This document shows, one piece after another, positions 31,002 to 37,012 of a stretch of DNA of 64,000 nucleotides. The notes beneath the pieces were generated by a model. The model did not search any database and had not been told where the DNA came from. It saw only the letters and a list, made by a program, of their open reading frames with translations. This stretch comes from Escherichia coli (GTDB taxonomy: Bacteria > Pseudomonadota > Gammaproteobacteria > Enterobacterales > Enterobacteriaceae): the NCBI RefSeq assembly GCF_044324785.1, contig NZ_CP172127.1. One strand, 5' to 3'. Position 1 is the stretch's first letter. Each line of letters opens with the position of its first letter. The translations under genes and the position numbers were made by a program.

Positions 31002-31910
31002 CTAATTCTGCTGTAAAAAGTGCAGAAACTGACTTAAAGCATAAGAAGGCGTTTCGTTATTGCGCCAGAACACACCGACGCTGCCTTTCTGTTCTATCTT
31101 TGGCAGGTTGAGGATCACCAGTTGTCCCTGGCTGGCATAACGTTGCGCCAGGCGTAATGACAAAATAGAGATCATATCGCTGCTTTGTAACAGGTTGGTA
31201 CTGACGTTCATCGACGCCGACTCAATCGTGTTTTCTGGCAGCATCACGCCGTGGTCTACCAGCGCATTATCAATACTGATGCGAATGGGGGTACCTGTCG
31301 GCCAGACTATCCACCGCCAGTTAGCAAGATCATTCCAGCTGAGGGTGGCGTATTTCGCCAGTGGATGCTCAGCACGGGCGACAAAACACACCGGCTCGGT
31401 GTAGAGCACCTTATAATTCAGTGGCAGCTGCAAGGCGCGACCGCCAATTCGCCCAACGACCACGTCGACAGAACCTGCCAATAGATCTTGCAGCAATGGG
31501 GTCATAACCTTCTCTTCAATATTCAGGTGTAGAGTTGGCATCTCCTTGAGCAAATGCAAAATCGCCTGGGATACGCAGTCAGTGGCGACGGGAGAACAGC
31601 CAATTTTCAGACTGCCGACCAGCCCACCTTGTTTAAAACGGGCCAGTTCATGTTGCGAGCGCTCCATGTCATTGATTAACCGCTGGGCATGTTGCAATAA
31701 CAATCTACCGCCTTCGGTAGGGCGTAACCCTTTGCTGTGCCGCTCAAAGAGTGTGAGGCCGATCTCATCTTCGAGTTGTGACAACCATTTCGACAGCGCA
31801 GGCTGGGTGATATTCATCATCCGCGCGACATGGGTCAGATTGCCCTGTTCACCCAGCGCCACCAGCATTTGCAGGTGATGAAGCTTTAGTTTCTGCGCCC
31901 AGTTTGCCAT
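31002..31910 (-). CDS. mhbR: LysR-family regulator of the gentisate cluster
   Basis: ATG at 31910 with SD tggagg gives 303 aa; HTH near the N-terminus; divergent from the catabolic operon. Confidence 0.75.
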   Translation of the reverse strand: MANWAQKLKLHHLQMLVALGEQGNLTHVARMMNITQPALSKWLSQLEDEIGLTLFERHSKGLRPTEGGRLLLQHAQRLINDMERSQHELARFKQGGLVGSLKIGCSPVATDCVSQAILHLLKEMPTLHLNIEEKVMTPLLQDLLAGSVDVVVGRIGGRALQLPLNYKVLYTEPVCFVARAEHPLAKYATLSWNDLANWRWIVWPTGTPIRISIDNALVDHGVMLPENTIESASMNVSTNLLQSSDMISILSLRLAQRYASQGQLVILNLPKIEQKGSVGVFWRNNETPSYALSQFLHFLQQN

Positions 31911-31915
31911 TTGCC

Positions 31916-31931
31916 ATAACCTCCAGGTTAT
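31916..31931. promoter_or_regulatory. Palindrome ATAACC-N4-GGTTAT (LysR-type box) overlapping the mhbR RBS
   Basis: Perfect 6+4+6 inverted repeat in the mhbR/mhbT divergent region. Confidence 0.4.
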
Positions 31932-32036
31932 CTCTCTGCCCGAAATGCCATTGTACATTTCATCTCTTTAATCACAATATCGCAACATACATAAAACAAA
32001 AGAAACATCTACCTTACCTGCACTGAGGCATTTACT

Positions 32037-33395
32037 ATGACTCAACGACGTGATTTACAAGCACTGATCGATGCTGCTCCGGTCGGCAAGATGCAGTGGC
32101 GCGTTATCATCTGCTGTTTTCTGGTGGTAATGCTCGATGGTTTTGACACCGCGGCTATCGGCTTTATCGCCCCTGATATTCGCACTCACTGGCAACTCAC
32201 CGCAGGCGATCTCGCCCCGCTTTTTGGCGCGGGTCTGCTGGGGTTAACCGCAGGCGCACTGCTTTGTGGTCCGTTGTCCGATCGCTTTGGCCGCAAACGT
32301 GTGATTGAGCTGTGCGTCTTTTTGTTTGGCGCGTTAAGCCTCGCCTCGGCTTTCTCACCGGATCTGCAAACGCTGGTATTCCTGCGTTTCCTCACCGGCC
32401 TTGGGCTGGGTGGCGCGATGCCAAACACAATTACCATGACCTCGGAATATCTGCCTGCCCGCCGCCGCGGCGCGCTGGTGACGCTGATGTTTTGCGGCTT
32501 TACCCTGGGTTCGGCGTTTGGCGGGATTGTCAGCGCGCAGCTGGTGCCGGTGATTGGCTGGCACGGGATCCTGGTGTTGGGTGGCGTATTACCGCTGATG
32601 CTGTTTGTTGCACTGCTGGTGGTTCTGCCGGAATCGCCACGCTGGCAGGTGCGCCGCCAGCTACCCCAGGCGGTGATTGCGAAAACCGTCAGCGCCATCA
32701 CCCGCGAGCGTTATGTCGATACCCACTTTTATCTCATTGAATCAGCCTCCGTTACAAAAGGCAGCATTCGTCAACTGTTTATGGGGCGTCAGTTACCCAT
32801 CACGTTGATGCTGTGGGTGGTGTTCTTTATGAGCTTGCTGATTATTTACCTGCTCTCAAGCTGGATGCCAACGCTGCTCAACCATCGCGGCATCGACCTG
32901 CAACATGCCTCCTGGGTTACCGCCGCGTTCCAGATTGGCGGTACGTTGGGCGCGCTGGCGCTGGGCGTGCTGATGGATAAGTTCAATCCTTTCCGCGTAC
33001 TGGCGCTGAGCTATGCCATAGGCGCTGTATGCATCGTGATGATTGGCTTAAGCCAGGACGGATTATGGCTAATGGCGCTGGCGATTTTCGGCACCGGCAT
33101 TGGCATCAGCGGATCGCAGGTGGGGCTGAATGCGCTGACCGCAACACTTTATCCAACACAAAGTCGCGCCACGGGCGTGAGCTGGTCAAACGCCGTGGGC
33201 CGCTGCGGCGCGATTGTTGGCTCGCTGTCTGGCGGCGTGATGATGGCGATGAATTTCTCTTTCGACACCCTGTTTTTCATTATCGCTGTGCCCGCGGCGA
33301 TCAGTGCGGTGATGTTAACCCTGCTGATCACCGTGGTTCGCCAGTCGACCTCTGTCCCTGACTCACTGCCTCACGCAGGTGTTGTGAACGAATAA
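32037..33395 (+). CDS. mhbT: MFS aromatic acid:H+ symporter (3-hydroxybenzoate transporter-like)
   Basis: 452 aa 12-TM MFS protein, first gene of the catabolic operon. Confidence 0.75.
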
Positions 33396-33406
33396 GGAGC
33401 ATCCCA

Positions 33407-34435
33407 ATGACTGATAACAATCAAAATAGCCGCGAGCAATTTTATCAGCATATTTCCGGGCAAAACCTGACCCCGCTGTGGGAGTCACTGCACCATCTGG
33501 TGCCAAAAACGCCCAACGCTAACTGTGCGCCAGCGTACTGGAATTATCAGGAGATCCGCCCGCTGCTGCTGGAGAGCGGCAGCCTGATTGGCGCGAAAGA
33601 AGCCGTGCGCCGCGTGCTGGTGCTGGAAAACCCGGCGCTGCGCGGGCAGTCTTCCATCACCGCGACTTTATATGCCGGTTTGCAACTGATCATGCCGGGC
33701 GAAGTGGCACCGAGTCATCGCCATAACCAGTCGGCGCTGCGTTTTATTGTTGAAGGTAAAGGGGCATTCACCGCCGTTGATGGCGAACGCACGCCAATGA
33801 ATGAGGGCGATTTTATCCTGACCCCGCAGTGGCGCTGGCACGATCACGGTAACCCTGGCGACGAACCGGTTATCTGGCTCGATGGGCTGGATCTGCCATT
33901 AGTGAACACTCTGGGCTGCGGTTTTGCCGAAGATTACCCGGAGGAGCAACAACCAGTAACGCGTAAAGAGGGCGATTACCTGCCGCGTTACGCTGCCAAT
34001 ATGTTGCCGCTGTGCCATCAGACCGGGAACTCCTCGCCCATCTTTAACTACCGTTATGACCGTAGCCGCGAAGTGCTACACGATTTAACCCGCCTGGGCG
34101 ATGCCGATGAGTGGGATGGCTACAAAATGCGCTACGTCAACCCGGTCACCGGTGGCTATCCGATGCCGTCGATGGGCGCTTTCCTGCAACTGCTGCCGAA
34201 AGGGTTTGCCTCACGCGTGGCGCGTACCACTGACAGCACCATCTACCATGTGGTGGAAGGTAGCGGGCAGGTCACTATCGGCAATGAAACCTTCAGCTTT
34301 AGTGCAAAAGATATCTTCGTGGTGCCGACCTGGCACGGCGTGTCGTTCCAGACCACGCAAGATACCGTTTTATTTAGTTTTTCGGACAGACCGGTACAAG
34401 AAGCCCTGGGGCTGTTCCGCGAAGCGCGTTATTAA
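33407..34435 (+). CDS. mhbD: Gentisate 1,2-dioxygenase (bicupin)
   Basis: 342 aa; cupin His motifs ([19 protein letters not shown]). Confidence 0.8.
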
Positions 34436-34450
34436 TTTGGGAGAGAGAAA

Positions 34451-35152
34451 ATGACTCAATACGTATTCGAACCACAAGCGCCCGTTACCGTACCGGTTGT
34501 TGGCAGTGATGAACAATTCCCCGTACGCCGCGTTTACTGCGTCGGACGTAACTATGCCGCCCACGCCCGCGAAATGGGCTTTGATCCGGATCGTGAACCG
34601 CCATTCTTCTTCTGCAAACCGGCGGATGCCGTTGTTCCGGTTGCCGCTGGCGAAACGCTGGCGCTGCCGTATCCGGCGCAGACCGATAACTACCATTATG
34701 AAATTGAACTGGTGGTGGCGATTGGTAAAAAAGGCAGTGATATCCCGCTGGAAAACGCCCATGAATATGTCTGGGGTTATGCCACGGGTCTTGATATGAC
34801 TCGCCGTGACCGTCAAATGGAAATGCGCCAGATGGGCCGCCCGTGGGAAATCGGCAAAGCGTTCGATCTCTCGGCCCCCATCGCGCCGCTGCACAAAGCC
34901 AGCGAAACTGGCGGTATTGATAACGCACCTATCTGGTTACAGGTTAACGGCGAAGATCATCAGCGCAGCGATATTCGTCATCTCATCTGGTCAGTGAATG
35001 AAACCATCAGCTACCTGTCAGGCTTCTTTGAGCTGCAACCGGGCGATCTAATCTTTACCGGTACGCCGGAAGGGGTTGGCCCAGTAGTCAAAGGTGATGT
35101 GATCACGGGCAACGTCGAGGGCTTAACGCCTATCGCGGTGAAGATTGTCTGA
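34451..35152 (+). CDS. mhbH: Fumarylpyruvate hydrolase (FAH family)
   Basis: 233 aa FAH-fold protein. Confidence 0.7.
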
Positions 35153-35804
35153 GGTGATGATGAAGCTGTACAGTTTTTTTAATAGTTCAGCGTCTTACCG
35201 GGTGCGCATTGCGCTGGCGCTGAAGGGTATCGATTACCAGACCGAAGGGGTGAATATCCGCATTGGTCAGCAAAACGAACTGGCCTACCGGCGGATGAAT
35301 CCGGTCGGGCTGGTGCCGACGCTGCTGACCGACGAGGGCGAATCACTCGGACAATCGCTGGCGATTATTGACTGGCTGGAGAGTCACTACCCGCAAGTTC
35401 CGCTGATGCCGCAGGAAGAACCGGCCCGCAACAAGGTGCTGGAAATTGTCTATGCCATCGCCTGCGATATTCATCCATTGAATAACCTACGCGTGCTGCG
35501 CTACCTGACCGAAGAGCTGAACGTCAGTGAAGAAGATAAAAAACGCTGGTATGCGCACTGGATCCAGCAAGGGTTAAGCGCGGTGGAACAGCTACTGCGC
35601 CAGAGCCAGTCGGGGCAATTTTGTGTGGGCGAGACGCCGACGCTGGCAGATTGCTGCCTTGTTCCACAGTGGGCGAACGCGCTACGTATGAACTGCGATC
35701 TGAGCGGGTATCCGCGCTGCAAAGCGGTGTACGACGCCTGCACGCAGCTGCCAGCGTTCATTGCCGCAGCGCCAGAAAATCAACAAGATAAAATTTCAGC
35801 CTGA
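35145..35804 (+). CDS. mhbI: Maleylpyruvate isomerase (GST zeta-like); start codon uncertain (TTG 35145, ATG 35157 or 35160)
   Basis: GST N-terminal thioredoxin fold ([23 protein letters not shown]). Confidence 0.7.
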
Positions 35805-35818
35805 CCAGGAGAACCATA

Positions 35819-37012
35819 ATGACTAAAGTGACACGCGCAGTAATTGTGGGAGGCGGGATCGGCGGTGCGGCAACTGCGTTGTCACTGGCCCGCCAGGGGA
35901 TCAAAGTGGTGCTGCTGGAAAAGGCGCATGAGATCGGTGAGATTGGCGCAGGTATCCAGTTGGGGCCAAATGCGTTTTCGGCGTTGGATAGCCTCGGCGT
36001 CGGCGAAATCGCCCGCCAGCGCGCGGTATTCACCGATCACATCACCATGATGGATGCGGTAAACGCCGAAGAAGTGGTGCGCATTGAAACCGGTCAGGCC
36101 TTTCGCGATCATTTCGGCGGCCCTTACGCGGTGATCCACCGGGTTGATATTCACGCCTCGGTGTGGGAAGCGGTACTGACGCATCCGGACGTGGAATATC
36201 ACACCTCCACCAACGTCGTGGATATTCGCGAGACAGAAGACGATGTCACCGTTTTCGACGATCGCGGCAATAGTTGGATCGGCGATATTCTGATTGGCTG
36301 TGACGGCGTGAAGTCAGTGGTGCGCCAGAGCTTATTGGGCGATGCGCCGCGTGTCACCGGGCATGTGGTCTACCGTGCGGTTATCGATTGTGCCGATATG
36401 CCGGAAGATTTGCGCATTAACGCACCAGTACTGTGGGCGGGGCCGTGCTGTCACTTGGTGCATTACCCTTTACGCGGCGGCAAGCAGTATAACCTGGTGG
36501 TGACATTCCACAGCCGCCAGCAGGAAGAGTGGGGCGTGAAGGATGGCAGTAAAGAGGAAGTGCTCTCTTACTTTGAAGGGATTCACCCCCGTCCGCGCCA
36601 GATGCTGGATAAACCGACCTCCTGGCGACGCTGGTCAACCGCCGACCGTGAACCGGTAGCGAAGTGGGGAACGAAGCGCATTACGCTGGTGGGCGATGCG
36701 GCCCATCCGGTGGCGCAGTATATGGCGCAGGGTGCCTGTATGGCGCTGGAAGACGCGGTAACACTGGGTAAGGCGCTGGCGCAGTGTGAGGGTGATGCGG
36801 CACAAGCCTTTGCGCTGTATGAGTCGGTACGTATTCCGCGCACCGCGCGCATCGTCTGGTCGACCCGTGAAATGGGGCGGGTTTATCATGCCGCAGGAGT
36901 AGAGCGCCAGGTACGTAACCTGTTGTGGAAAGGGAAATCGCAGGCAGAGTTTTACCGCGGCATGGAGTGGCTGTACGGCTGGAAAGAAGATAACTGTTTG
37001 CAACCACGCTGA
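35819..37012 (+). CDS. mhbM: 3-hydroxybenzoate 6-monooxygenase (FAD-dependent aromatic hydroxylase)
   Basis: 397 aa; Rossmann [19 protein letters not shown] and DG..S.VR flavoprotein hydroxylase motifs. Confidence 0.8.

Follow-up and report, generated by a model that had tools for sequence, protein, structure and literature searches.

A conserved PcaQ-type palindrome in the mhbR/mhbT control region of Escherichia coli is the probable recognition site of the LysR-type regulator MhbR

We analysed a stretch of Escherichia coli DNA of 64 kb (the window), in which the mhb island (31002-37012) sits between yohJ (~30473) and dusC (37026). The minus-strand gene mhbR (31002-31910, ATG at 31910-31908) encodes a LysR-type regulator of 302 aa, as placed by its translation, the RefSeq start and orthologue N-termini. 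Divergent from it, on the plus strand, lies the proposed target operon mhbT-mhbD(gtdA)-mhbH-mhbI(maiA)-mhbM (32037-37012), identified from open reading frames and RefSeq names, with the products in order being a transporter, gentisate 1,2-dioxygenase, fumarylpyruvate hydrolase, maleylpyruvate isomerase and 3-hydroxybenzoate 6-monooxygenase. For an E. coli strain with 99.9% identity, RefSeq lists a minus-strand LysR-family gene, divergent from the mhbT operon and with its 5' end at 31910, the mhbT start at 32037, and a fumarylacetoacetate-hydrolase-family label on the mhbH counterpart. The segment 31000-33400 is 99.9% identical to E. coli strain N3 and is shared by 613 of 5426 complete E. coli genomes (~11%). 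Among the 623 matching places, 26 are plasmid-borne, including one 47.7-kb IncX1 plasmid on which the cluster lies between IS3 and Tn3 transposase remnants. The mhb cluster is accessory in E. coli, and these settings suggest that it has spread by transposons or plasmids.

Several further observations concern the island and its relatives. In strain N3, whose genome is the closest match, the 3-hydroxybenzoate 6-monooxygenase gene (L001, 9320-10512) is annotated as a frameshifted pseudogene, and the corresponding gene of the window (35819-37012) is an intact open reading frame of 397 aa. The contig JAIJJM010000061.1 (L002), labelled 'MAG: Collinsella sp.', shows 98% protein identity to the E. coli mhb locus with a near-identical intergenic region, and its label most likely reflects mis-binning or contamination of the metagenome-assembled genome. 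Additionally, MhbR of the Serratia marcescens group (L017, L019, L020, L046) shares 87-89% identity with its E. coli counterpart, compared with ~84% for Klebsiella, and that of Serratia sp. H1w (L040) is only 69% identical and accompanies another type of intergenic region; these identities suggest horizontal transfer of the mhb cluster into the S. marcescens group.

Next, we examined the mhbR product and its start. Homologues at 65-98% identity carry PF00126 (HTH_1) and PF03466 (LysR_substrate), and MhbR of the window can be aligned over its full length with many NCBIfam LysR models and with solved LysR-type transcriptional regulators (LTTRs; TsaR, BenM, OxyR, CbnR). By its sequence, the protein thus presents as a LysR-type regulator, with an HTH_1 domain, a LysR substrate-binding domain and a length of ~300 aa. 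All 14 of 14 orthologues (65-86% identity) begin with M-x-[N/D]-W-[T/A]-Q-K-L at the residue encoded at 31910. The initial annotation had placed the mhbR start at 31910, and this assignment is well supported by the RefSeq start, the 14 orthologue N-termini and the Shine-Dalgarno (SD) spacing. A longer mechanical open reading frame from 31958 (318 aa) was rejected on the orthologue N-termini and the RefSeq start; the 48-nt extension would also cross conserved promoter elements, which counts against it.

The intergenic region between the two genes contains a palindrome at 31916-31931 which reads ATAACCTCCAGGTTAT. Its distance to the start codon is 5 nt on the mhbR side and 105 nt on the mhbT side, so that a dyad-symmetric site lies between the regulator gene and its divergent target. 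The earlier description of a perfect inverted repeat, ATAACC-TCCA-GGTTAT, is correct, and a 7+2+7 reading is slightly better than 6+4+6, with the inverted-repeat search returning 7-nt arms (ATAACCT, 31916-31922; AGGTTAT, 31925-31931) that are 100% complementary across a 2-nt gap. We propose this site, which has no strand and whose box can be written ATAAC-N6-GTTAT, as the primary (recognition, 'RBS') site of MhbR, on the basis of its sequence, the conservation of its arms and its match to the PcaQ operator. On the minus strand the palindrome and the mhbR start read ATAACCTGGAGGTTAT-GGCAA-ATG. The centre CCTCC (31920-31924) is the complement of GGAGG, which we read from the sequence as the minus-strand SD of mhbR, 9 nt upstream of the ATG with TTATGGCAA (9 nt) in between; the palindrome therefore does hold the complement of the mhbR SD, as had been noted before. 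Two small features accompany the site, namely a 7-nt tandem repeat (TTTGCCA, two copies) at 31903-31917 across the mhbR start codon and an out-of-frame ATG (31917-31915) inside the palindrome, 2 nt past the mhbR SD. Citrobacter has ATA where Escherichia has this out-of-frame ATG, one A-to-G difference making the ATG.

We then asked how unusual such a palindrome is within a single sequence. The pattern ATAACC-N4-GGTTAT with at most one mismatch occurs once in the 64-kb window versus 0.10 expected, a rarity that is overstated in that the pattern was picked after the palindrome had been seen. A fairer test counts any palindrome whose spacer does not exceed 10 nt in shuffled versions of the 126-nt intergenic region, and here 20% (arms of at least 6 nt) and 5% (arms of at least 7 nt) of the shuffles contain one. 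Since 5-20% of the shuffles hold an equal palindrome, single-sequence statistics are insufficient, and the palindrome alone is mildly unusual and constitutes weak evidence; its significance derives from its conservation and not from its rarity. Looser searches for further sites in the 64-kb window returned just two one-mismatch matches, which is the chance level, and a full-text literature search for the exact 16-mer gave no match.

To compare the control region across taxa, we used a locus scan with one genome per species, which comprised 56 loci with MhbR relatives at 63-98% identity. In 54 of the 56 loci mhbR points away from an mhbT homologue, behind which a gentisate dioxygenase gene usually lies, the exceptions being L039, with only 185 nt upstream of mhbR, and L057, a match to a fragment of 29 residues. 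Intergenic regions were cut by coding coordinates only, which yielded 51 distinct regions ranging from E. coli to Xenorhabdus and including two beta-proteobacteria. In a k-mer census of these 51 regions, ATAAC and CCATT were the sole 5-mers found in all, and GTTAT was found in 49 of 51. Unanchored MAFFT alignment of the same regions gave invariant columns at 31916-31920 (ATAAC) and 31928-31931 (TTAT) within the palindrome, and elsewhere at 31938, 31945, 31948-31952, 31954, 31976, 31985-31987 and 32025-32027, the last being the mhbT SD. A further alignment of 26 sequences comprised 25 loci plus a second copy in Saezia sanguinis (L047b), with one locus per genus save two Escherichia species and three Serratia-labelled loci. 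In this alignment invariant columns make up 8 of 10 in the arms versus 9 of 80 elsewhere (Fisher, p = 1e-5), and the information content is 2.0 bits in the arms versus 0.07-0.9 bits just outside. A regular expression for the motif served to anchor the 26-sequence alignment, which is thereby partly circular, but the coordinate-cut k-mer census and the unanchored MAFFT alignment agreed with it.

The exact motif ATAAC-N6-GTTAT occurs once per locus of ~5.9 kb, 5-6 nt before mhbR, with a small number of exceptions. In Shimwellia the site itself reads GATTAT and the sole exact match is located in another part of the locus; Leminorella has ATAAC-N5-GTTAT, the only variant that gives T-N11-A; in the Alcaligenaceae locus (L048) the site reads ATAAC-N6-ATTAT; and the fragment locus L057 has no motif match. 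The arms are kept while the central bases vary among TCCA, CCCC, CCTC, CTCC, TCCT, TCAA, TGAA and AAAA. Across the sequences compared we could thus confirm that the palindrome is conserved at its arms while its centre and flanks vary, and it is this conservation that decides the case, although the SD together with the promoter and leader of mhbR, instead of protein binding, could be responsible for part of it. In O157:H7-type strains (L059, Z1766; at window position 31924) the site reads ATAACCTCAAGGTTAT, with the centre TCAA, intact arms and an mhbR SD weakened from GGAGG to GAGG; ~500 E. coli genomes fall in the 95-99% identity class of the O157:H7-type mhb locus.

Two loci separate the arms from the SD. 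In Saezia sanguinis, a second palindrome, together with copies of the second conserved block (31938-31954 in the window) and of the -10, stands upstream of a second MhbT-like MFS gene without mhbR (L047b), and this copy retains the arms, the block and a -10-like CACAATAC, with diverged flanks and the centre AAAAA. The two copies (L047, 834-849 and 2475-2490) belong to a tandem duplication of the control region and the MhbT-like transporter gene, and the second keeps a CAT-TTGAT remnant of the mhbR start and no mhbR. In L048, an Alcaligenaceae metagenome-assembled genome, 48 nt separate the palindrome from the downstream mhbR ATG, whose SD is a distinct AAGGG; the operator is here embedded in a longer perfect palindrome with 13-nt arms (2420-2455, GGCTTTGTCATAA-N8-TTATGACAAAGCC). 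The palindrome centre is A/T-only in both L047b, which has no adjacent mhbR, and L048, where the SD sits well downstream of the palindrome. The arms are therefore selected independently of the SD, since they are kept without SD function in the Saezia copy and the Alcaligenaceae locus. The Enterobacterales centres are without exception rich in purines on the mhbR-sense strand (GGAGG, GGGGG, GAGGG, AGGAGG, GAGG) and therefore always form an SD. The SD comes to lie in the operator centre because the mhbR leader is only ~33 nt long, and we regard the overlap as an incidental by-product of this short leader and not as a mechanism, because a regulator bound to DNA leaves ribosomes unhindered and because the L048 palindrome sits apart from the SD.

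Upon examining the promoters, we obtained from a promoter scan a predicted minus-strand mhbR promoter with a -10 TACAAT (31950-31955) and a -35 TTGTGA (31972-31977) separated by a 16-nt spacer. The -10 hexamer positions are conserved, with positions 2, 4, 5 and 6 (A, A, A, T) invariant in all loci (TACAAT, GATAAT, TATAAT, TAAAAT). The predicted mhbR transcription start at ~31943 (+/-2) would put the palindrome at ~+13 to +28 of the ~33-nt leader. On the plus strand the scan returned no promoter above threshold, as expected for an activator-dependent promoter. From the 26-sequence alignment we predict a weak mhbT -35 TTGTAC (31951-31956, plus strand) and, from its conservation in the alignment, a weak mhbT -10 CAATAT (31975-31980, plus strand), with an 18-nt spacer; the hexamers are weak (6 of 12) and stand at constant spacing from the palindrome. 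Within this -10, the alignment shows no variation at A31976 (position 2) or T31980 (position 6) and 92% conservation of C31975, and an A-C-A at 31985-31987 is 88-92% conserved in the same alignment. The mhbT start is predicted near A31987, which would place the palindrome at -71 to -56 (centre -63.5). The predicted mhbR -35 overlaps the predicted mhbT -10 on the opposite strand, and the two predicted promoters overlap almost completely.

An alternative mhbT -10 in the conserved GCAACATA (31983-31990) is less likely, with no conserved -35 at the right distance, and is also disfavoured by the position of the motif, which in a distant group lies ~11 nt further from the operator; we accordingly read the A-C-A as probable start-site context, a -10 role being the less likely alternative. 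The surrounding GCAAC(A/G) (31981-31990; L040-L045, L055) is conserved in all groups, and the ~11-nt displacement in the distant Enterobacterales group corresponds to one helical turn; the motif may belong to the start-site context, act in the leader or be bound by a further factor. The mhbT SD, GAGG (32025-32028, plus strand), lies 8 nt upstream of the ATG, and its GAG (32025-32027) is invariant in the 51 regions. Kluyvera and Pseudenterobacter (L024-L029, L036, L049) carry an insertion of ~44 nt in the mhbT leader, equivalent to window ~32010-32020, which holds an inverted repeat GCCGTTC...GAACGGC. E. coli, Citrobacter and Klebsiella lack this repeat, and the insertion may represent either a mobile repeat of small size or a hairpin in the leader.

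Furthermore, a second conserved block, G-N4-GAAAnnCCATTnT (31938-31954, without strand), lies 10 nt from the palindrome and overlaps both the mhbR -10 and the mhbT -35. Its positions 31938, 31945, 31949-31952 and 31954 are invariant and 31943, 31944 and 31948 nearly so. Relative to the predicted mhbT start the block would cover -49 to -33, and we propose it as the activation site (ABS). A dyad, GAAATG-N8-CATTTC (31942-31961), was considered as a symmetric activation site and rejected, as its register varies between groups (GAAA-N12-TTTC versus GAAA-N11-TTTC). We claim only a conserved block and no dyad here, because the register is not kept between groups.

The family assignment of MhbR bears on the form of the box. 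Its best NCBIfam match is TF_pcaQ (TIGR02424; 188.8 bits, E = 1e-55, full length), the next family scoring 109 bits (E = 2e-31). The score remains below the TIGR02424 equivalog cut-off of 303.8, so that by sequence MhbR is best described as a member of a PcaQ-like sister subfamily and not as PcaQ. The PcaQ operator is quoted as ATAACC-N4-GGTTAT in PMC3557286, and as ATAaccgggggatTAT in PMC5002191, centred 65.5 bp upstream (-65.5), where mutations in the arms cut activation. The mhb palindrome has the same ATAAC/GTTAT arms, 6-nt gap and 16-bp dyad, and is an exact match to the motif given in PMC3557286. The PcaQ systems (pcaDCHGB/pcaMNVWX of Sinorhizobium meliloti, and Agrobacterium) share the arms and the 16-bp length with mhb, and the position of their operator at the target promoter (-65.5) agrees with the one predicted for mhb (-63.5). 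Because MhbR is below the PcaQ equivalog cut-off, the operator specificity is carried over from PcaQ by inference. Both regulators act on aromatic-acid catabolism; the PcaQ pathway is that of protocatechuate, whereas the MhbR pathway is that of gentisate, and the effector of MhbR must therefore differ from that of PcaQ. The spacing of the box is not the canonical T-N11-A, the symmetric T31917 and A31930 being separated by 12 nt (T-N12-A). This lowers the case for a canonical box but not that for an LTTR site, because the PcaQ box deviates likewise. The initial annotation had called the palindrome LysR-type; that designation holds, with the refinement that the site is a PcaQ-type 16-bp box with conserved arms instead of a canonical T-N11-A box.

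We further compared the region with characterised systems. In Klebsiella M5a1, MhbR is described as a LysR-type activator of mhbTDHIM (Lin, Liu & Zhou 2010, as cited in PMC3572157 and PMC7862547). Klebsiella pneumoniae (oxytoca-group) M5a1 shares with E. coli the divergent gene order mhbR<->mhbTDHIM, the MhbR orthologues of the oxytoca group are ~84% identical to the E. coli protein, and the K. oxytoca intergenic region is equally long, with an identical 16-bp palindrome and second block. The E. coli copy differs from that of Klebsiella in residing on an accessory island between yohJ and dusC. Classic LTTR regions (CatR/ClcR, BenM/CatM, CbnR, IlvY, OccR) have a recognition site at ~-65, an activation site at ~-35 and negative autoregulation. 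Following the general model in PMC5002191, the mhb region would share with them a dyad A/T-rich site ~60-70 bp upstream of the activated start (here a predicted one), a less symmetric second site over the predicted -35, and a divergent regulator gene whose promoter would be covered by the bound protein. In contrast to the classic box (ATAC-N7-GTAT / T-N11-A), the mhb box is ATAAC-N6-GTTAT (T-N12-A), and unlike in the classic cases the predicted mhb promoters overlap nearly wholly and the proposed recognition site lies in the regulator's predicted leader and contains its SD. In Cupriavidus necator H16, the LysR-type GtdR adjoins and activates the gentisate operon (PMC11603403), which contains gtdA, a hydrolase gene, maiA and genes for 3-hydroxybenzoate 6-monooxygenase and an MFS transporter in an order different from that of mhb. 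Genetic evidence for GtdR/PgtdA favours maleylpyruvate, and not gentisate, as the true inducer (PMC11603403). By functional analogy with GtdR, the inducer of MhbR need not be 3-hydroxybenzoate or gentisate.

Several other readings of the palindrome were weighed. It might act mainly as RNA, with a 6-bp leader hairpin (AUAACC-UGGA-GGUUAU) that sequesters the SD, limits mhbR translation and explains the conservation. The palindrome does lie within the predicted mhbR leader and includes the SD, and the leader centroid fold is exactly this hairpin; the fold is nonetheless weak, at -4.9 kcal/mol, and the leader has no folding advantage over its shuffles (z = 0.40, with 123 of 200 shuffles at least as good). 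In the alignment 98% of the cells are paired and one double (compensatory) change occurs, in L048, yet four of the six pairs never vary, which leaves no covariation signal, and three cells are unpaired without compensation. With this fold score and pair variation, a stable SD-sequestering leader hairpin with covariation was rejected as a candidate. Invariance of the primary sequence over 35% protein divergence is a prediction of protein recognition and not of structure alone, L047b keeps the arms outside any mhbR leader, L048 has its palindrome 48 nt from the ATG with the SD elsewhere, and the motif equals the known operator of a protein (PcaQ), all of which makes the hairpin reading very improbable. 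We also considered that the operator may be used twice, with the arms read as DNA by MhbR, the centre (SD) read as RNA by the ribosome, and the leader hairpin adding a translational layer. This we hold to be improbable as well; if true, MhbR output would be set jointly by a transcriptional roadblock and SD occlusion.

It is also highly unlikely, in our estimate, that another DNA-binding protein, global or local, uses the palindrome and that MhbR binds elsewhere, such as at the 31938-31961 block alone. In favour of such a protein are the second block, which matches the palindrome in conservation and includes the small dyad GAAATG-N8-CATTTC, and the departure of the palindrome from T-N11-A; but the dyad register in the second block is not kept between groups, and the palindrome motif accompanies mhbR in different families and classes and on the E. 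coli IncX1 plasmid, is not found elsewhere in the 64-kb window and corresponds to the operator of the nearest LysR subfamily. Chance would account for the palindrome itself, given that shuffled intergenic regions hold equal ones in 5-20% of cases, with the conservation then due to the SD, a short leader and the shallow divergence of a horizontally spread island. Some loci are indeed not independent, the island being mobile (613 of 5426 E. coli genomes, plasmids). Against this, the flanks and centre are near-random while the arms are invariant (0.07-0.9 versus 2.0 bits), the SD accounts for the centre only and not for ATAA/TTAT, and the arms persist down to 63-69% protein identity, as they do in a copy that has no SD function, so that we consider a chance origin extremely unlikely.

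The sequence features of the region, their conservation and the family assignment can be regarded as established. From them we infer MhbR binding, the transcription starts, the inducer and the direction of regulation, including autorepression. The palindrome is very probably the high-affinity recognition site of MhbR in a compact region of overlapping divergent promoters. In the proposed mechanism, an MhbR tetramer would place one dimer on ATAAC-N6-GTTAT (31916-31931), a site with its centre ~63.5 bp upstream of the predicted mhbT start, and the other on the conserved block at 31938-31954, over the weak mhbT -35. Upon binding of the inducer, which may be either one of the pathway's aromatic acids or a product of ring cleavage, the promoter-proximal dimer would shift or relax the DNA bend, and RNA polymerase would be recruited to PmhbT. 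The same occupancy would cover the PmhbR -10 (TACAAT, 31955-31950) and the early transcribed region, leading to self-repression of mhbR. The layout had been interpreted before as fitting classic LysR autorepression with divergent activation, and the conserved arms, the PcaQ operator match and the predicted geometry lend support to this interpretation. In the proposed scheme the operator arms would be constrained by protein recognition and the central bases by translation.

Overall, this is an ordinary, well-understood LysR operator whose regulator has already been characterised in Klebsiella, and no current model is challenged by it. The practical value is modest: the mhbR start codon is fixed, and the E. 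coli mhb control region is provided with a testable map consisting of an operator, a second site and two overlapping divergent promoters. Knowledge of the box would be useful for building biosensors of 3-hydroxybenzoate or gentisate. For the family, the sequences point to the MhbR subfamily using a PcaQ-type 16-bp box and not T-N11-A, which may aid motif-based regulon prediction in this LysR clade.
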